A DNA stretch of 64,000 nucleotides, from NCBI RefSeq assembly GCF_055900595.2, contig NZ_CM148325.1; one strand, 5' to 3'. A model generated the notes under the pieces. That model was given only the letters and a program-made list of their open reading frames with translations, did no database searches and was not told the origin of the DNA. Made by a program: the position numbers and the translations under genes. Numbering within the stretch: position 1 is the stretch's first letter; each line of letters starts with the position of its first letter. This document shows, in pieces, positions 6,239 to 37,497 of this stretch.

Positions 6239-7330
6239 ATGCGTTTTCTGCGCCGACCAATATCGCTGCGCCAACGGCTGATATTGACCATCGGGGCCAT
6301 TTTGTTGGTGTTTGAGCTGATCAGCGTCTTCTGGCTATGGCATGAAAGTACCGAGCAGATTCAGCTGTTTGAGCAGGCGCTACGCGACAATCGTAACAAC
6401 GATCGCCACATCATGCGTGAGATCCGCGAGGCGGTCGCCAGCCTGATTGTCCCTGGCGTCTTTATGGTCAGCCTGACGCTATTTATCTGCTATCAGGCGG
6501 TACGCCGCATCACCCGCCCGCTGGCGGAGCTGCAAAAAGAGCTGGAAGCGCGCACCGCCGACAACTTAACGCCCATTGCCATTCACAGCGCCACCCTCGA
6601 AATCGAAGCGGTGGTTTCAGCGTTAAACGATCTGGTCAGTCGCCTGACCAACACGCTGGATAACGAAAGGTTGTTTACCGCTGACGTCGCGCACGAACTG
6701 CGAACGCCACTGGCGGGGGTGCGTTTGCATCTGGAACTGCTGGCGAAAACGCATCACATTGATGTAGCACCGTTAGTGGCACGACTTGATCAGATGATGG
6801 AGAGTGTCTCCCAGCTACTGCAACTGGCGCGTGCCGGACAGTCATTTTCTTCCGGTAATTATCAACATGTAAAACTGCTGGAAGATGTCATTCTCCCCTC
6901 GTATGACGAACTCAGTACCATGCTCGACCAGCGCCAGCAAACCCTGCTATTGCCAGAGAGCGCCGCCGACATCATCGTTCAGGGTGATGCAACCCTGCTG
7001 CGGATGTTATTGCGAAACCTGGTAGAAAATGCCCATCGTTACAGCCCGCAAGGCAGCAACATTATGATTAAGCTGCAAGAAGATGGCGGAGCGGTCATGG
7101 CCGTTGAAGATGAAGGACCGGGTATTGATGAGAGTAAATGCGGGGAGTTGAGTAAAGCGTTTGTACGTATGGACAGCCGTTATGGCGGGATTGGTCTGGG
7201 GTTAAGTATTGTCAGCCGCATTACACAGTTGCATCACGGGCAGTTTTTCCTGCAAAACCGGCAAGAGACTTCTGGCACACGGGCCTGGATACGGCTGAAA
7301 AAAGATCAGTACGTGGCAAACCAGATATAA
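6239..7330 (+). CDS. basS: Sensor histidine kinase BasS/PmrB
   Basis: 363 aa from the ATG at 6239 (six-frame ORF begins at 6230); two TM segments, H-box AHELRTPLA, HATPase region with GIGLGLSIV. Confidence 0.85.
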   Translation: MRFLRRPISLRQRLILTIGAILLVFELISVFWLWHESTEQIQLFEQALRDNRNNDRHIMREIREAVASLIVPGVFMVSLTLFICYQAVRRITRPLAELQKELEARTADNLTPIAIHSATLEIEAVVSALNDLVSRLTNTLDNERLFTADVAHELRTPLAGVRLHLELLAKTHHIDVAPLVARLDQMMESVSQLLQLARAGQSFSSGNYQHVKLLEDVILPSYDELSTMLDQRQQTLLLPESAADIIVQGDATLLRMLLRNLVENAHRYSPQGSNIMIKLQEDGGAVMAVEDEGPGIDESKCGELSKAFVRMDSRYGGIGLGLSIVSRITQLHHGQFFLQNRQETSGTRAWIRLKKDQYVANQI

Positions 7331-7395
7331 AGAAAGCTGCTGACCACCAGCACGCTGAACACGGTAGTTAAACTTTCATAAACACGGTTTTTCAT
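7306..7395 (-). CDS. pmrR: Small membrane peptide PmrR (29 aa: MKNRVYESLTTVFSVLVVSSFLYIWFATY)
   Basis: Translated by hand from the minus strand (not in the six-frame track); GGAGG Shine-Dalgarno 8 nt upstream; single hydrophobic helix; preceded by a PmrA box; 3' end overlaps basS antisense by ~25 nt. Confidence 0.6.
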   Translation of the reverse strand: MKNRVYESLTTVFSVLVVSSFLYIWFATY

Positions 7396-7439
7396 TGCAC
7401 TCTCCTCCGTTAACCTGGAGGAGAGTATGCGCGTCAGAG

Positions 7440-7456
7440 ATTAAGTGAACCTTAAG
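7440..7456 (-). promoter_or_regulatory. PmrA (BasR) box CTTAAG-N5-CTTAAT upstream of pmrR
   Basis: Minus strand reads cttaaggttcacttaat, a match to the PmrA direct-repeat consensus, ~45 bp upstream of the pmrR ATG. Confidence 0.5.
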
Positions 7457-7465
7457 AGTTCAATT

Positions 7466-7494
7466 GGCCTGATAAGACAGCATCACATCAGGCC
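7466..7494 (-). terminator. Putative proP terminator hairpin (ggcctgat...atcaggcc)
   Basis: 8-bp perfect inverted repeat immediately 3' of the proP stop. Confidence 0.4.
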
Positions 7495-7506
7495 ATCCGT
7501 TTCAGC

Positions 7507-13144: not shown

Positions 13145-13290
13145 TCGGTAGGCCGGATAAGGCGCTCGCGCCGCATCCGGCTACGGTGCCGACTGCCTGA
13201 TGCGACGCTCGCGCGTCTTATCAGGCCTACAAATTCTCGCACCATCCGGCAACGGTGCCTAATGCGACGCTTACCGAGTCTTATCAGCCC
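13145..13290. repeat. Cluster of REP (repetitive extragenic palindromic / BIME) units
   Basis: Repeated ggccggataaggcg...cgccgcatccggc and gcctgatgcgacgc...gtcttatcaggcctac motifs in alternating orientation. Confidence 0.8.
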
Positions 13291-15758: not shown

Positions 15759-15768
15759 TGTGCTCGAT

Positions 15769-15861
15769 CGGTCCCCTCTCCCTTGAGGGAGAGGGTTAGG
15801 GTGAGGAAGAAATGCGCACGCTGGTGCCCTCACCCCGGCCCTCTCCCACAGGGAGAGGGAG
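15769..15861. repeat. Pair of GC-rich palindromic units (ccctctccc-loop-gggagaggg plus ttagggtgagg / cctcaccccgg) in inverted orientation
   Basis: Perfect 9-bp stem-loops seen directly; the same unit recurs at 21122-21231. Confidence 0.6.
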
Positions 15862-15883
15862 AAAACATTAAACGGAGCCAAAC

Positions 15884-21100: not shown

Positions 21101-21121
21101 ATGCAACACCGTGCGCGCTGA

Positions 21122-21231
21122 TCCCCTCACCCCGGCCCTCTCCCGGAGGGAGAGGGAGAAAACCGGCGCAATATTCAACACCGCGCACAATCGGTCCCCT
21201 CGCCCCTTCGGGGAGAGGGTTAGGGTGAGGG
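21122..21231. repeat. Two GC-rich palindromic units of the same family as 15769-15861, flanked by caacaccg(t)gcgc motifs
   Basis: cccctcaccccggccctctcccggagggagaggg and cggtcccctcgccccttcggggagagggttagggtgagggg seen directly. Confidence 0.6.
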
Positions 21232-21276
21232 GCAATGCGCGCACCGCTCCCCAATATGCGAACCACGAGGCGAAAA

Positions 21277-24862: not shown

Positions 24863-25192
24863 TCACCGCCCATACTCATCTTCCATTCTCCGCTCTTCAT
24901 CTTCTAGCTGCCGACGCTCCTGATCCAGCTGGCGCTGGCGATCGTCCAGCTGCCTGCGGCGATCTTCAAACTGGCGGCGGCGATCGTCATATTGTCTGCG
25001 CCGATCGTCGTTCACTTCACGCTGCCAGCCGTCGTCGCGCGAATCTTCATAGTCTCGCCCACGGTCAGGGTTATAAGCATCGTTAATCGCCTGCTGAATA
25101 TTACCAATGGTGTCGTCGATAATATCGGCCTGGGCCGGAACGGTGGACAGCGTGAGCAGGGTGAATAAAAGAAATAGCGGAAAACGTTTCAT
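24863..25192 (-). CDS. yjdP: Small secreted protein YjdP (signal peptide, charged Arg/Asp/Glu/Gln-rich repeats)
   Basis: 109 aa; N-terminal MKRFPLFLLFTLLTLSTVPAQA signal peptide, then low-complexity RRRQ/DDR repeats. Confidence 0.75.
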   Translation of the reverse strand: MKRFPLFLLFTLLTLSTVPAQADIIDDTIGNIQQAINDAYNPDRGRDYEDSRDDGWQREVNDDRRRQYDDRRRQFEDRRRQLDDRQRQLDQERRQLEDEERRMEDEYGR

Positions 25193-25260: not shown

Positions 25261-25578
25261 TCAATTTTTCCGCTGCTCTATTGCCGTAATCGCCTCCACA
25301 CGTTGTTGATGACGACCGCCTTCGTACTGCGCGCCCAGCCACGCATCCACAATCATTTTTGCCAGTTCGAGGCCAACCACTCGTGAACCAAAAGCCAGTG
25401 CAACTTCACTGGCGTAATGCGGATAATCAGTGCGCTCTGACGACCTGGTTTCTTTATCAATCCCCTCACTCATTGACCATGAATAAAAGGCTGGCACAGC
25501 AACGCAGAATCCTGCGGTGCCAGCGACATGACCGCCCATTGCTCCGGTACGTTTTTTAATAAGAAACACCGGTTGCAT
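25261..25578 (-). pseudogene. rpiB: Remnant of ribose-5-phosphate isomerase B gene (internally deleted, 5' part scrambled)
   Basis: C-terminal ~60 aa of the ORF (SSERTDYPHYASEVALAFGSRVVGLELAKMIVDAWLGAQYEGGRHQQRVEAITAIEQRKN) matches RpiB as I recall it, but the central ~50 residues, including the GTGVG...AANK active-site region, are missing and the N-terminus does not match. Confidence 0.55.
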
Positions 25579-25830
25579 TGATTAATTGTGCTCAGTATTT
25601 GCCGAAGTACAATATATATAATAAATATATAAAACACCTCATATTATTTACAGAGATAATAAATTCGCATACTTTTCCCTCTTCAGCACAAATGCCTAAT
25701 AAAATGGCTCGTTCCGCTCACACTTCCACTTATTAAAATCGCAATTTCCCAATTATGATAACGCCAGCTTTAAATGACGTATTTTGCATGGATTACATAT
25801 TTACGACACAAATGATAAATGGAGATTTAT

Positions 25831-27816
25831 ATGAATAACTCTCGGTTATTCCGTTTGAGCAGGATTGTTATTGCGTTAACTGCCGCCAGCGGCATGATGG
25901 TAAATACCGCTCACGCAACAGATGAAGCGAAAGCCGCCACTCAATATACCCAACAGGTTAATCAGAATTACGCCAAATCATTACCGTTTAGCGATCGTCA
26001 GGATTTTGACGATGCCCAGCGCGGATTTATCGCCCCGCTGCTGGATGAAGGTATTCTGCGCGATGCGAATGGCAAAGTTTACTACCGCGCGGATGATTAC
26101 AAATTTGATATTAATGCCGCTGCGCCGGAAACCGTAAACCCCAGCCTGTGGCGTCAGTCGCAGATCAACGGCATTTCTGGCCTGTTCAAAGTCACCGATA
26201 AAATGTATCAGGTGCGCGGCCAGGATATCTCTAACATTACATTCGTTGAGGGCGAGAAAGGCATTATTGTTATCGACCCACTGGTGACACCGCCTGCCGC
26301 AAAAGCCGCACTTGACCTTTACTTCCAGCATCGTCCGCAAAAACCGATTGTTGCTGTTATTTACACCCACAGCCACGCCGACCATTATGGCGGTGTGAAA
26401 GGCATTATCTCTGAAGCGGATGTTAAATCTGGCAAAGTGCAGGTGATCGCTCCGGCAGGCTTTATGGACGAAGCCATCAGCGAAAACGTGCTGGCGGGTA
26501 ACATCATGAGCCGCCGTGCGCTCTACTCTTACGGTCTGTTACTGCCGCACAACGCGCAAGGCAACGTGGGCAACGGCCTGGGCGTGACGCTGGCAACGGG
26601 CGATCCGAGCATTATTGCGCCAACCAAAACGATTGTCAGAACTGGCGAGAAGATGGTTATCGACGGTCTGGAGTTTGACTTTCTGATGACTCCGGGTAGC
26701 GAAGCGCCAGCCGAAATGCACTTCTATATTCCGGCCCTGAAAGCCCTGTGTACCGCCGAAAACGCCACGCATACCCTGCACAACTTCTACACCCTGCGCG
26801 GCGCGAAAACCCGCGATACCAGCAAGTGGACAGCGTATCTGAACGAAACGCTGGATATGTGGGGTAACGACGCGGAAGTACTGTTTATGCCGCACACCTG
26901 GCCGGTCTGGGGCAATAAGCATATCAATGATTATATTGGTAAATATCGCGATACTATCAAATACATTCACGACCAGCCCCTGCACCTGGCGAACCAGGGT
27001 TACACCATGAATGAAATCGGCGACATGATTAAGCTGCCACCTGCGCTTGCCAATAACTGGGCCAGCCGCGGCTATTACGGTTCTGTTAGCCACAACGCCC
27101 GTGCAGTGTATAACTTCTATCTCGGCTATTATGACGGCAATCCAGCTAACCTACATCCGTACGGTCAGGTGGAGATGGGCAAACGTTACGTGAAAGCGCT
27201 GGGCGGTTCCGCCCGTGTCATCAACCTGGCGCAAGAAGCGAACAAGCAAGGGGATTACCGCTGGTCAGCAGAGTTGCTGAAACAATTGATTGCCGCCAAT
27301 CCGGGTGACCAGGTGGCGAAGAATCTGCAAGCAAATAACTTTGAACAGTTGGGTTATCAGGCCGAGTCCGCCACCTGGCGCGGTTTCTACCTGACCGGCG
27401 CAAAAGAGCTGCGCGAAGGGGTGCATAAGTTCAGCCACGGCACCACCGGTTCTCCGGACACCCTTCGCGGGATGTCGGTCGAAATGCTGTTCGACTTTAT
27501 GGCCGTTCGCCTCGATAGCGCGAAAGCCGCAGGTAAGAATATCAGCCTGAACTTCAATATGAGCAACGGCGATAACCTCAACCTGACGCTGAACGATAGC
27601 GTGCTTAACTACCGTAAAACGCTGCAACCTGAAGCCAACGCCTCTTTCTACATCAGCCGTGAAGATCTTCACGCCGTGCTGACCGGACAAGCCAAAATAG
27701 CGGATCTGGTAAAAGTGAAGAAAGCCAAAATTATTGGCAATGGCGCGAAACTGGAAGAAATTATTGCCTGTCTGGATAATTTCGATTTGTGGGTGAATAT
27801 CGTAACCCCAAATTAA
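25831..27816 (+). CDS. yjcS: Putative alkyl/aryl sulfatase YjcS (metallo-beta-lactamase fold, secreted)
   Basis: 661 aa from MNNSRLFRL; signal peptide; HSHADH motif. Confidence 0.8.
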
Positions 27817-33061: not shown

Positions 33062-35209
33062 ATGAAAAAAGTCGTCACGGTTTGCCCCTATTGCGCATCA
33101 GGTTGCAAAATCAACCTGGTCGTCGATAACGGCAAAATCGTCCGGGCGGAGGCAGCGCAGGGGAAAACCAACCAGGGTACCCTGTGTCTGAAGGGTTATT
33201 ATGGCTGGGACTTCATTAACGATACCCAGATCCTGACCCCGCGCCTGAAAACCCCCATGATTCGTCGCCAGCGTGGCGGCAAACTCGAACCTGTTTCCTG
33301 GGATGAGGCACTGAATTACGTTGCCGAGCGCCTGAGCGCCATCAAAGAGAAGTACGGTCCGGATGCCATCCAGACGACCGGCTCCTCGCGTGGTACGGGT
33401 AACGAAACCAACTATGTAATGCAAAAATTTGCGCGCGCCGTTATTGGTACCAATAACGTTGACTGCTGCGCTCGTGTCTGACACGGCCCATCGGTTGCAG
33501 GTCTGCACCAATCGGTCGGTAATGGCGCAATGAGCAATGCTATTAACGAAATTGATAATACCGATTTAGTGTTCGTTTTCGGGTACAACCCGGCGGATTC
33601 CCACCCTATCGTGGCGAATCACGTAATTAACGCTAAACGTAACGGGGCGAAAATTATCGTCTGCGATCCGCGCAAAATTGAAACTGCGCGCATTGCTGAC
33701 ATGCACATTGCACTGAAAAACGGCTCGAATATCGCGCTGTTGAATGCGATGGGCCATGTCATTATTGAAGAAAATCTGTACGACAAAGCGTTCGTCGCTT
33801 CCCGTACAGAAGGCTTTGAAGAGTATCGTAAAATCGTTGAAGGCTACACGCCGGAGTCGGTTGAAGATATCACCGGCGTCAGCGCCAGTGAGATTCGTCA
33901 GGCGGCTCGGATGTATGCCCAGGCGAAAAGCGCCGCCATCCTGTGGGGCATGGGTGTAACCCAGTTCTACCAGGGCGTGGAAACCGTGCGTTCTCTGACC
34001 AGCCTCGCGATGCTGACTGGTAACCTCGGTAAGCCGCATGCGGGTGTAAACCCGGTTCGTGGGCAAAACAACGTGCAGGGTGCCTGCGATATGGGCGCGC
34101 TGCCAGATACTTACCCTGGCTACCAGTACGTGAAAGATCCGGCTAACCGCGAGAAATTCGCCAAAGCCTGGGGTGTAGAGAGTTTGCCAGCACATACCGG
34201 TTATCGCATCAGCGAGCTGCCGCATCGCGCAGCGCATGGTGAAGTGCGTGCCGCGTACATTATGGGCGAAGATCCGCTACAAACTGACGCGGAGCTGTCG
34301 GCAGTACGTAAAGCCTTTGAAGATCTGGAACTGGTCATCGTTCAGGACATCTTTATGACCAAAACCGCGTCGGCGGCGGATGTCATTTTACCGTCAACGT
34401 CGTGGGGCGAGCATGAAGGCGTGTTTACTGCGGCTGACCGTGGCTTCCAGCGTTTCTTCAAGGCGGTTGAACCGAAGTGGGATCTGAAAACGGACTGGCA
34501 GATTATCAGTGAAATCGCCACCCGTATGGGTTATCCGATGCACTACAACAACACCCAGGAGATCTGGGACGAGTTGCGTCACCTGTGCCCGGATTTCTAC
34601 GGTGCGACTTACGAGAAAATGGGCGAACTGGGCTTCATTCAGTGGCCTTGCCGCGATACTTCAGATGCCGATCAGGGGACTTCTTATTTGTTTAAAGAGA
34701 AGTTTGATACCCCGAACGGTCTGGCGCAGTTCTTCACCTGCGACTGGGTAGCGCCAATCGACAAACTCACCGACGAGTATCCGATGGTACTGTCAACGGT
34801 GCGTGAAGTCGGTCACTACTCTTGCCGTTCGATGACCGGTAACTGTGCGGCACTGGCGGCGCTGGCTGATGAACCTGGCTACGCACAAATCAATACCGAA
34901 GACGCCAAACGTCTGGGTATTGAAGATGAGGCATTGGTTTGGGTGCACTCGCGTAAAGGCAAAATTATCACCCGTGCGCAGGTCAGCGATCGTCCGAACA
35001 AAGGGGCGATTTACATGACCTACCAGTGGTGGATTGGTGCCTGTAACGAGCTGGTTACCGAAAACTTAAGCCCGATTACGAAAACGCCGGAATACAAATA
35101 CTGCGCCGTGCGCGTCGAGCCGATCGCCGATCAGCGCGCCGCCGAGCAGTACGTGATTGACGAGTACAACAAGTTGAAAACTCGCCTGCGCGAAGCGGCA
35201 TTGGCGTAA
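33062..35209 (+). CDS. fdhF: Formate dehydrogenase H (selenocysteine-containing; UGA at 33479-33481 decoded as Sec)
   Basis: Two same-frame ORFs (33062-33481 and 33530-35209) separated only by a TGA; joined product 715 aa; N-terminal Cys cluster CPYCASGC; SECIS hairpin immediately 3' of the UGA. Confidence 0.9.
33482..33525 (+). other. SECIS element (SelB-binding mRNA hairpin) directing Sec insertion at the fdhF UGA
   Basis: cacggcccatcggttgcaggtctgcaccaatcggtcggtaatggc immediately follows the in-frame TGA and matches the fdhF SECIS as I recall it. Confidence 0.7.
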
Positions 35210-35302: not shown

Positions 35303-35992
35303 ATGAAAAAAATTATCGCATTGATGTTGTTTTTGACATTCTTTGCCCACGCGAACGACTCCGAGCCTGGCAGTCAGTATTTAAAGGCAGCAGAGGCCGG
35401 GGACCGACGCGCACAATATTTTCTTGCCGACAGCTGGTTTAGCTCCGGCGATTTGAGCAAAGCCGAATATTGGGCACAGAAAGCCGCCGACAGCGGTGAT
35501 GCTGATGCCTGCGCACTGTTAGCGCAGATCAAAATCACCAATCCGGTCAGTCTGGACTATCCACAAGCAAAAGTTCTTGCAGAGAAAGCGGCGCAAGCAG
35601 GCAGTAAAGAAGGTGAAGTGACGCTGGCGCATATTCTGGTGAATACTCAAGCGGGTAAACCGGATTATCCAAAGGCGATTTCGCTGTTAGAAAACGCCTC
35701 GGAAGATCTGGAGAACGACTCCGCCGTCGATGCCCAAATGCTGCTTGGTTTGATTTACGCCAACGGCGTGGGCATTAAGGCCGACGATGACAAGGCAACC
35801 TGGTATTTCAAACGCAGCTCTGCGATTTCCCGAACCGGTTATTCCGAGTACTGGGCGGGAATGATGTTCTTAAATGGTGAAGAAGGTTTTATCGAGAAGA
35901 ACAAACAGAAGGCGCTGCACTGGCTGAACCTGAGCTGTATGGAAGGGTTTGATACCGGGTGTGAAGAGTTTGAAAAATTAACTAACGGTTAA
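35303..35992 (+). CDS. yjcO: Sel1-repeat (TPR-like) secreted protein YjcO
   Basis: 229 aa from MKKIIALMLFL; signal peptide plus repeated Sel1-like motifs. Confidence 0.75.
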   Translation: MKKIIALMLFLTFFAHANDSEPGSQYLKAAEAGDRRAQYFLADSWFSSGDLSKAEYWAQKAADSGDADACALLAQIKITNPVSLDYPQAKVLAEKAAQAGSKEGEVTLAHILVNTQAGKPDYPKAISLLENASEDLENDSAVDAQMLLGLIYANGVGIKADDDKATWYFKRSSAISRTGYSEYWAGMMFLNGEEGFIEKNKQKALHWLNLSCMEGFDTGCEEFEKLTNG

Positions 35993-35994
35993 TG

Positions 35995-36165
35995 TAGGCC
36001 TGATAAGACGCGGCAAGCGTCGCATCAGGCATTGATGTCGGATGCGGCGTAAACGCCTTATCCGACCTACAAAATCACGCTAAATCAGGCTATTGCGCAG
36101 TCTGGCGTAGGCCTGATAAGACGCGGTAAGCGTCGCATCAGGCATCCACACATTGCCGGGTGTAT
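35995..36165. repeat. Cluster of REP/BIME units
   Basis: Three copies of gtaggcctgataagacgcg...cgtcgcatcaggc / ggatgcggcgtaaacgccttatccgacctac in alternating orientation. Confidence 0.85.
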
Positions 36166-36183
36166 GTCCCCGGCAATCCTCAA

Positions 36184-37497
36184 TTATTGATCCGCAGTTT
36201 TATCAAATTTGCCCAGCACTTCGCGCTCATAAGCCAGCGCTTTCTTACGGTCAAATTTGTGTTCCCACTTGGCAATCACCAGCACCGCCAGCGCGTTACC
36301 CACCACATTCAGTGCCGTACGTGCCATGTCGAGGATACGGTCAACACCGGCAATAAACGCCAGACCTTCCAGCGGGATCCCTACGCTGCCCAGCGTTGCC
36401 AGCAACACCACAAACGACACGCCCGGCACGCCAGCAATCCCTTTCGAGGTCACCATCAGCGTCAGCACCAGAATGATTTCCTGCCAGATGGACAGGTCAA
36501 TGCCATACAACTGCGCGATGAAAATAGCGGCAATACTTTGATACAGCGTCGAACCATCAAGGTTAAAAGAGTAACCGGTCGGCACCACGAAACTGGTGAT
36601 CGACGCCGGTGCACCGTAGGCTTCCATCTTCTCAATAATTCGCGGCAACACGCTTTCAGAGCTGGCAGTGGAGTACGCCAGAATCAGCTCATCTTTCAGA
36701 ATACGAATCAGGATCCAGACGCTTAACCCGCACAGGCGCGCCACAATTCCCAGCACTACCAGCGCGAAGAACAGAATGGCGAAATGCACCAGCAGCACCA
36801 GTTTCGCCAGTGGCCACAGAGACGAGAAACCAAAGTTAGCCACCGTCACCGCAATCAGCGCAAACACACCCACCGGCGCATAACGCATCACCATATGAGT
36901 CACTTTAAACATGGTTTCAGAGATGGAGCGGAACACGGTCACCAGCGGTTCACGATGCGTCGCGGGCAGGGAGGAAAGCCCCAGACCAAACAGTACCGAG
37001 AAGAAGATGATCGGTAACATTTCGCCTTTCGCCATCGACGCCACAATGTTCGTCGGCACCAGAGACAAAATCGTGCCCATAATACCGTGGGAACTGCTCT
37101 GTACCGCTTCTGTAGTGCTCTGATATTTCGAGATATCGACGGTTGCCAGCTGCGACATATCCACCCCGGCACCGGGCTGGAAGACGTTCGCCAGGGTGAT
37201 CCCCAGAATGATGGCGACAGTGGTGATCACCTCGAAATAGATAATGGTTTTCGCGCCAATACGCCCGAGCTGTTTGGCATCACCAACACCCGCGATACCC
37301 ACCACCAGCGTGGAGATCACAATCGGCACAACAATCATTTTGATCAGATGGATGAAGATATCACCCGCCGGAGAGAGCAAATTGACGACCAGCCAGTCGC
37401 GGCTGTCGCTATGGTAGTGCAGGTAGCTTCCCAGGAGAATGCCCAGCACCATAGCAAACAGAATCTGCCAGGCCAGGCTGAATTTTATATTTTTCAT
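36184..37497 (-). CDS. gltP: Glutamate/aspartate:proton symporter (DAACS family)
   Basis: 437 aa multi-TM protein, N-terminus MKNIKFSLAWQILFAMVLGILLG. Confidence 0.9.
   Translation of the reverse strand: MKNIKFSLAWQILFAMVLGILLGSYLHYHSDSRDWLVVNLLSPAGDIFIHLIKMIVVPIVISTLVVGIAGVGDAKQLGRIGAKTIIYFEVITTVAIILGITLANVFQPGAGVDMSQLATVDISKYQSTTEAVQSSSHGIMGTILSLVPTNIVASMAKGEMLPIIFFSVLFGLGLSSLPATHREPLVTVFRSISETMFKVTHMVMRYAPVGVFALIAVTVANFGFSSLWPLAKLVLLVHFAILFFALVVLGIVARLCGLSVWILIRILKDELILAYSTASSESVLPRIIEKMEAYGAPASITSFVVPTGYSFNLDGSTLYQSIAAIFIAQLYGIDLSIWQEIILVLTLMVTSKGIAGVPGVSFVVLLATLGSVGIPLEGLAFIAGVDRILDMARTALNVVGNALAVLVIAKWEHKFDRKKALAYEREVLGKFDKTADQ

Follow-up and report, generated by a model that had tools for sequence, protein, structure and literature searches.

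The gap between the convergent genes yjcO and gltP carries a cluster of REP palindromes, as do two other gaps in the 64,000-nt stretch of DNA analysed here (the window). This raised the question of which class of element the clusters represent, how they compare with the corresponding K-12 loci, and what they might do at the 3' ends of the neighbouring genes. The window runs opposite to the K-12 coordinates, from adiY to beyond ssb, and the gene names used below were verified against annotated complete E. coli genomes. It is practically certain that the three clusters are canonical E. coli REPs and alleles of known K-12 loci. Knowledge of REP/BIME elements dates from the 1980s, and published experiments have already made direct use of REP321 and REP325, two of the K-12 loci concerned. 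The finding is already known, and its only notable point is the strongly strain-dependent copy number.

REP census and anatomy of the three sites

The whole window was scanned by edit distance (Sellers) against Y, Z1 and Z2 consensus strings, with 20 shuffles as the control. These strings are what we take to be the consensus of the Bachellier/Gilson classification, and their only anchors were the Rfam naRNA4 consensus and its description in the papers (one Y plus one Z2). Seven canonical REPs were found in the 64-kb window, each within three edits of the Y or Z2 consensus. They were confined to three sites: yjdM/yjdN (two copies, site 1), yjcO/gltP (three copies, site 2) and acs/yjcH (two copies, site 3). 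Allowing up to six edits returned those seven copies only, while the 20 shuffles gave no locus at all. The REP tail motif CTTATCMGGCCTAC had eight matches in the window against 0.45 expected. Every copy was extragenic, lying between annotated coding sequences, and all seven had GTAG or CTAC at the foot of the palindrome (35994, 36067, 36107, 13148, 13227, 46612 and 46686). Chance palindromes were rejected by the shuffle controls for the scan, the tail motif and the folding. The assignment of the site-2 units to Z1 fragments by a fuzzy-regex scan was a mis-call, the edit-distance scan giving Z2, Y and Z2. At megablast stringency, an 801-nt query across site 2 matched a median of 11 places in each E. 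coli genome. Tandem Repeats Finder reported no repeat at any of the three sites, because fewer than two full units are present at each.

An earlier note on this DNA had listed classical REPs at these three sites, and the REP consensus scan placed all seven copies exactly there. Its gene names agreed with the annotated E. coli genomes. The convergent or 3' intergenic placement it described was also correct, with yjcO and gltP converging and the pairs yjdM-yjdN and acs-yjcH running in the same direction. Its coordinates fell within about 1-3 nt of the REP ends, but its end at 36165 cut through a separate hairpin (36153-36177). It was silent on the identity of site 1 with the much-studied REP325/naRNA4 locus and on the strain-variable repeat number. 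It also passed over a degenerate REP-like hairpin at 7463-7496 and a non-folding relic within the site-1 cluster. Its judgement that the clusters are not novel was sound: the family and the loci are known, and the anatomy shows no departure from BIME-2.

The site-2 gap, 191 bp long, is bounded by the stop codons of yjcO (35990-35992) and gltP (36184-36186, minus strand). It consists of 1 nt, a Z2, a 6-nt linker, a Y, a 36-nt linker, a second Z2, and 40 nt that include a 9-bp GC hairpin. The two Z2 units point leftwards and the Y rightwards. The first Z2 (35994-36030, minus strand, two edits) carries GTAG at 35994-35997 on the plus strand, and its stem begins at 35998, 5 nt past the yjcO stop. 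Its hairpin had folding energies of -21.8/-21.3 kcal/mol (z -5.4/-5.8). The head-to-head S linker that follows, ATTGAT (36031-36036), sets the 6-nt spacing between Z2 and Y and is identical in all units of the K-12 array. The Y unit (36037-36070, plus strand, three edits) is a locus-specific variant, GTCGGAT...ATCCGACCTAC, with hairpin energies of -19.2/-18.8 kcal/mol. Its end, GACC↓TACA at 36064-36071, matches the weak TnpAREP cleavage site B319(1) reported for the K-12 gltP-yjcO BIME (PMC3333891). The tail-to-tail inter-unit linker of 36 nt (36071-36106) is likewise locus-specific, and holds the IHF-consensus match AATCAGGCTATTG at 36083-36095. The second Z2 (36107-36143, minus strand; -21.8/-21.3 kcal/mol, z -6.4/-8.3) is a direct repeat of 35994-36032, 97% identical at a spacing of 113 nt.

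All three site-2 REPs folded on both strands as bulged hairpins, with energies of -18.8 to -21.8 kcal/mol and z scores of -5.2 to -8.3. In each of these six folds, stem segments of 7-8 bp and 4-5 bp were split by an internal loop or bulge. This accords with the general REP pattern, in which a palindrome 30-40 nt long is imperfect and keeps an internal mismatch or bulge. The whole gap folded with energies of -91.5 kcal/mol (z -6.0) for the plus and -93.9 kcal/mol (z -7.7) for the minus strand. The GC-rich hairpin at 36153-36177, ATTGCCGGG-N8-CCCGGCAAT, has a 9-bp stem (-15.4 kcal/mol on the plus and -17.5 kcal/mol on the minus strand, z -4.1/-4.9) and ends 6 nt short of the gltP stop. It is not a canonical REP. 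It was kept in every allele read, the 78-bp allele included. In Rfam it aligned with the Y half of naRNA4, and its 44.7 bits fell short of the gathering score. It is possibly a collapsed Y unit. No U-run follows this hairpin, and hence it was not called an intrinsic terminator.

The corresponding K-12 element is REP321 (NC_000913.3 4295836-4296435; name and coordinates from the supplement of bioRxiv 10.64898/2026.03.23.713779). The two share the locus, the flanking genes, the Z2 and Y types, the 6-nt and 36-nt linkers, the Y variant ATCCGACCTAC and the terminal hairpin beside gltP. They differ in size, the window having three REPs in a 191-bp gap and MG1655 REP321 having 11 REPs in 641 bp, and in one linker substitution (GCGCAGTC in the window, GCGCTGTC in K-12). 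The 113-bp period is present as a two-copy direct repeat in the window and in 5.3 copies in K-12.

Site 1 contains a Y unit (13148-13181, minus strand, two edits) and a Z2 unit (13195-13230, plus strand, one edit), the Y pointing leftwards and the Z2 rightwards. They are separated by the 13-nt S linker TACGGTGCCGACT (13182-13194), a spacing found in all six units of K-12 REP325, and they folded together into a single long hairpin (-51.6 kcal/mol, z -4.9). The relic of a second unit follows (13231-13290, plus strand), in which the Y is deleted and a decayed Z2 occupies 13257-13290. This Z2 is eight edits from the consensus, which is the chance level, and it is non-folding (-2.5 kcal/mol, z +0.7). 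Judging from the sequence, the Y was apparently lost by a deletion between short CATCCG repeats. K-12 REP325, the source locus of naRNA4 (PMC4550694), has the same location and the same Y-13 nt-Z2 unit, with an inter-pair linker of 17 nt. It comprises six units (12 palindromic units) in 657 bp, whereas the window has one intact unit and the decayed relic in a 239-bp gap. The REPs start 34 nt past the yjdM stop in the window and 14 nt past it in K-12.

At site 3, a leftward Z2 (46612-46647, minus strand, one edit) and a rightward Y (46655-46689, plus strand, two edits), with a 7-nt S linker ahead of the Y, likewise folded into a single long hairpin (-49 kcal/mol, z -8.0). In K-12, the acs/yjcH gap likewise holds a single Z2-Y pair and is 199 bp long. 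Directly past the acs stop lies a weak hairpin, TTGCCGGATGCG/ATCCGGGCAA (46574-46596, plus strand), whose fold was not significant on its own (-9.3 kcal/mol, z -1.5). It resembles a Y unit that has lost its centre. The strong hairpin at 36153-36177 and this weak one share this Y-without-centre appearance, GCCGG...CCGGCAA.

These three sites belong to BIME-2. Their seven units, each a Y or a Z2, alternate and are mutually inverted, and the S linkers within the pairs are 6, 13 and 7 nt long. BIME-2 elements are composed of mutually inverted Y and Z2 units with an S linker within the pair and s-, l- or r-type sequence between pairs, in strain-variable tandem units whose sequence is conserved at any one locus (Gilson/Bachellier/Hofnung, summarised in PMC3333891). 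The window alleles show no difference in kind from this family and lie at the short end of its range. The edit-distance scan found no Z1 unit among the seven canonical REPs, and no L-type linker was found inside any REP pair at the three sites.

Repeat number among strains

The flanks alone were searched in 5,426 complete E. coli genomes, and yjcO/gltP gap lengths were taken from 59 sampled genomes. The commonest class was the shortest, with gaps of 77-78 bp in 25 genomes. Gaps of 86 bp and 147 bp were seen in one genome each. Four genomes each had gaps of 177 bp, 189-191 bp, 303-304 bp, 416 bp and 529-530 bp, and six had gaps of 488-489 bp. The longest gaps were 639-642 bp (two genomes), 825-827 bp (three genomes) and 938 bp (one genome). 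Among the alleles read directly, the smallest had a single Z2 (78 bp) and the largest had 16 REPs (938 bp), and the steps were always of one 113-bp unit. Since single-REP alleles are the commonest class (25/59 sampled), the long yjcO/gltP array is clearly dispensable. Strain Z0117EC0005, whose flanks are 100% identical to those of the window, has five REPs in a 304-bp gap against three REPs here.

A 55-nt probe over the 36-nt linker was present in 1,779 of the 5,426 E. coli genomes, at 1-7 copies per genome. It was found on chromosomes only and never on plasmids. This distribution indicates that the linker is specific to the yjcO/gltP locus.

Unit number also differed among assemblies that share the K-12 flanks. 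Two assemblies, MG-phbCAB-3-5 and the O16:H48 strain PG20180058, have flanks identical to K-12 over 1,100 nt and carry four 113-bp REP321 units, against five in the MG1655 reference. Both are without the 2-nt deletion that the reference has in its first Y unit. The difference in units is either a real change between laboratory lines or an assembly error or difference. The gaps are length-variable tandem repeats, and as such they can confuse assembly and strain comparison.

The other two sites also varied by whole steps. The site-1 gap ranged from about 155 to 757 bp in 100-bp steps. The site-3 gap measured about 200 bp in most cases; expanded forms of 292, 383 and 473 bp (a step of about 91 bp) were rare. 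Variable unit number at a fixed locus has already been described for BIMEs (PMC3333891). We raise, as a tentative suggestion that we consider improbable, that unit number might act as a heritable, fast-changing dial on flanking-gene expression and convergent readthrough. The range of 1-16 REPs at yjcO/gltP and of 1-7 units at yjdM/yjdN would be examples of such a dial, again with low probability. If so, the short alleles of the window (three REPs at site 2; one unit and a relic at site 1) would be regulatory and not neutral length variants. The range of 1-16 REPs at a single gap offers natural material to test the recent proposal that REPs tune 3' ends.

Function of the arrays and alternative readings

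No intrinsic terminator (a hairpin followed by a U-run) was found in any of the three gaps, and the reading of the clusters as simple terminators was therefore rejected. The explanation that best covers all the results, and that we hold to be very probable, is that the clusters are BIME-2 alleles of K-12 loci acting by a mechanism at the RNA and DNA levels. Their identity, class, hairpin potential, lack of terminators and variation in unit number are direct observations, while we infer the mechanism from the K-12 literature. By analogy with K-12, we lean slightly towards the view that each cluster would serve as a bidirectional 3'-end module, blocking exonucleases and attenuating readthrough, built on a repeat that slippage and the REP-associated transposase would copy, maintain and resize.

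The module would work as follows. The units would be transcribed within the 3' UTR or the intercistronic RNA of the flanking genes. There, the stable bulged hairpins would block 3'->5' exonucleases and so stabilise the upstream message. With the help of Rho, they would also attenuate readthrough in part. Between yjcO and gltP, the palindromes could act in both directions, as a 3'-end module shared by two convergent genes that have no intrinsic terminators. At yjdM/yjdN and acs/yjcH, the REPs would be expected to favour the upstream gene within the operon. Terminating ribosomes stall at REPs that lie no more than 15 nt from a stop codon, according to Liang 2015 as reported in PMC12306157, and the stem 5 nt past the yjcO stop would fall inside this reported range (<16 nt).

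Published work on the two K-12 arrays is consistent with such a module. In K-12, REP325 stabilises the yjdM mRNA and, ahead of yjdN, serves as a partial Rho-dependent terminator (bioRxiv 10.64898/2026.03.23.713779). REP321 overlaps a region of Rho-dependent termination in vitro on the gltP-sense strand, antisense to the yjcO 3' end (supplement of bioRxiv 10.64898/2026.03.23.713779), an overlap measured on the 11-REP K-12 allele and not on the 3-REP allele.

At the DNA level, the array could be a non-autonomous repeat recognised by a REP-associated Y1 transposase (TnpAREP/RAYT). It would grow and shrink by whole units (113 bp, 100 bp and about 91 bp), through slippage or unequal recombination. 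The clusters resemble the REPIN doublets of the RAYT/TnpAREP system (PMC2817692, PMC3333891) in having inverted REPs, which form one long hairpin at sites 1 and 3. Each of the three sites had, on both strands, the features required by TnpAREP: a 5' GTAG, a stem mismatch, an inverted partner and a C↓T cleavage context. The cognate REP transposase gene was absent from the 64-kb window; in K-12, this gene lies elsewhere on the chromosome.

The strongest alternative is that the clusters are mainly selfish or neutral DNA, that is, repeats dependent on TnpAREP/RAYT together with slippage products, which are tolerated in 3' gaps and have no host function here. The extreme allele diversity, with its single-REP alleles, fits this reading, as do the decayed relics at sites 1 and 3 and beside gltP. 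TnpAREP cleaves an oligonucleotide of the K-12 gltP-yjcO BIME in vitro at four linker sites (PMC3333891), and REP effects are strongly context-dependent, with no general effect on mRNA half-life (bioRxiv 10.64898/2026.03.23.713779). However, deletion of REP325 in K-12 alters yjdM and yjdN transcript levels and growth, and expression is higher genome-wide for convergent pairs that have a REP between the two genes (bioRxiv 10.64898/2026.03.23.713779). There is also no other terminator in any of the three gaps. On balance, we regard the purely selfish or neutral reading as plausible but less likely, and the 3'-end module as the better reading.

A further possibility is that the BIME-2 units are gyrase sites at the DNA level, bound and cleaved by the enzyme and absorbing positive supercoils between convergent or highly expressed transcription units. 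Both gyrase and IHF binding had been suggested for these sites. The gyrase suggestion fits the class and the IHF suggestion does not, because the elements are BIME-2, with neither Z1 units nor an L linker. BIME-2 is the gyrase-associated class, and by analogy the window sites may share this association. Sites of gyrase cleavage show a strong over-representation in BIME-2 elements, chiefly in the Y units and regardless of transcription (PMC6379681), and all three sites here are BIME-2 with intact Y units. Nevertheless, cleavage sites occur in only a subset of BIME-2 elements (PMC6379681). Table DS3 of that study, which gives no gene names for these sites, lists a 582-bp interval with 0 sites under ciprofloxacin and 2 under rifampicin plus ciprofloxacin; its mapping to REP325 is inferred from its length and from its position and neighbouring intervals. 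No interval matching REP321 was found in the table, and most intervals in the region had 0 sites (PMC6379681). We therefore consider gyrase binding a doubtful account of these clusters, and one less probable than neutrality.

Far less probable is that the clusters are IHF-binding RIB/RIP elements (BIME-1). In BIME-1, too, REP pairs lie at gene 3' ends, but these elements consist of Z1 units paired with Y and a long conserved L linker bearing the IHF site, and it is to this class that IHF binding belongs (PMC3333891). Both features are absent from the canonical REPs of the window. The one exact match to the consensus WATCARNNNNTTR in the three gaps is that at 36083-36095, and it lies in the inter-pair linker of site 2; the site-1 and site-3 gaps had no match. 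Moreover, the consensus is weakly specific, the window having 10 matches where 4.1 would be expected. The match also varies at its first position, which is C instead of A/T in the two longest alleles read. As judged from the sequence, the BIME-1 reading is very improbable, and the match at 36083-36095 is a predicted site.

A similarly low probability applies, by analogy with K-12, to the reading of the clusters as naRNA4-like RNA genes, whose products would act with HU, bridging REP cruciforms and compacting the chromosome. Rfam naRNA4 (RF02564) matched all three sites above its gathering score of 59.5 bits. The best match was at site 1 (13151-13227, plus strand, 99.2 bits), which is REP325, where naRNA4 was defined (PMC4550694). 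Those at sites 2 and 3 scored 79.0 bits (35997-36067) and 76.9 bits (46615-46686, minus strand). However, the naRNA4 model consists of one Y and one Z2 and would match any such pair, so a match means a BIME-2 pair and not a dedicated sRNA gene. A 77-nt processed RNA that binds HU and condenses the nucleoid was claimed in PMC4550694 and is disputed in bioRxiv 10.64898/2026.03.23.713779. According to the latter, REP325 does not compact the nucleoid: its deletion or overexpression left nucleoid size unaffected, and REP-REP contacts were not seen in Hi-C. In the window, REP325 is cut to one intact Y+Z2 pair and a dead relic, and the population range of the site-1 gap is a poor fit to an essential structural role. 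For K-12, this reading is already largely refuted. In annotation, the sites should be labelled as BIME-2 and not as IHF sites, and the naRNA4 matches as a Y+Z2 REP pair.

Other repeats and RNA elements in the window

The interval covered by the window has six REP-bearing gaps in K-12 and three in this strain. The K-12 REP site between alsA and alsB is missing here because 6.8 kb, from alsK to most of rpiB, are absent. This absence lies between yjdP (24863-25192) and yjcS (25819-27816), and corresponds to K-12 positions 4306823-4313661, with alsK, alsE, alsC, alsA, alsB, alsR and most of rpiB. In place of the als region there is an AT-rich sequence of about 208 nt (25399-25606), and the last 138 nt of rpiB remain.

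At phnK/phnL (21101-21259) and phnD/phnE (15762-15878), the window carries BoxC pairs where K-12 has Y/Z2 REP pairs, the flanks being identical. The K-12 REP pairs lie near 4317918-4317999 (phnK/phnL) and at 4323247-4323333 (phnD/phnE, REP324). The BoxC copies are inverted motifs of the form CCCTCTCCC-N3-4-GGGAGAGGG-TTA-GGGTGAGGG, and the BoxC or intrastrand-triplex family was identified from PMC4666352. At phnK/phnL, 545 of the 5,412 E. coli genomes that gave a match (about 10%) had the BoxC allele. The phnD/phnE gap had at least three allele classes. Since BoxC and REP pairs occupy the same position between identical flanks, the two palindromic repeat families are alternative alleles at the same operon junctions.

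The degenerate Z-like REP hairpin GGCCTGATGTGATGCTGTCTTATCAGGCC lies directly past the proP stop, in the convergent proP/basS gap (7463-7496, minus strand). At seven edits it is a borderline case, and it folded well (-17.9 kcal/mol, z -4.7). It adjoins the Rfam sRNA STnc630 in the same gap (7299-7464, minus strand, 182 bits). Two further Rfam models scored above their gathering scores: the selenocysteine insertion element of fdhF (SECIS_2, 33474-33528, 87 bits) and the Hfq-binding sRNA SraL (53941-54080, 157 bits), the latter beside soxR, where K-12 annotates RyjA. Tandem repeats with a 21-nt period were present within the reading frames of yjdP (24929-25009, 3.9 copies) and ssb (57462-57501, 1.9 copies).
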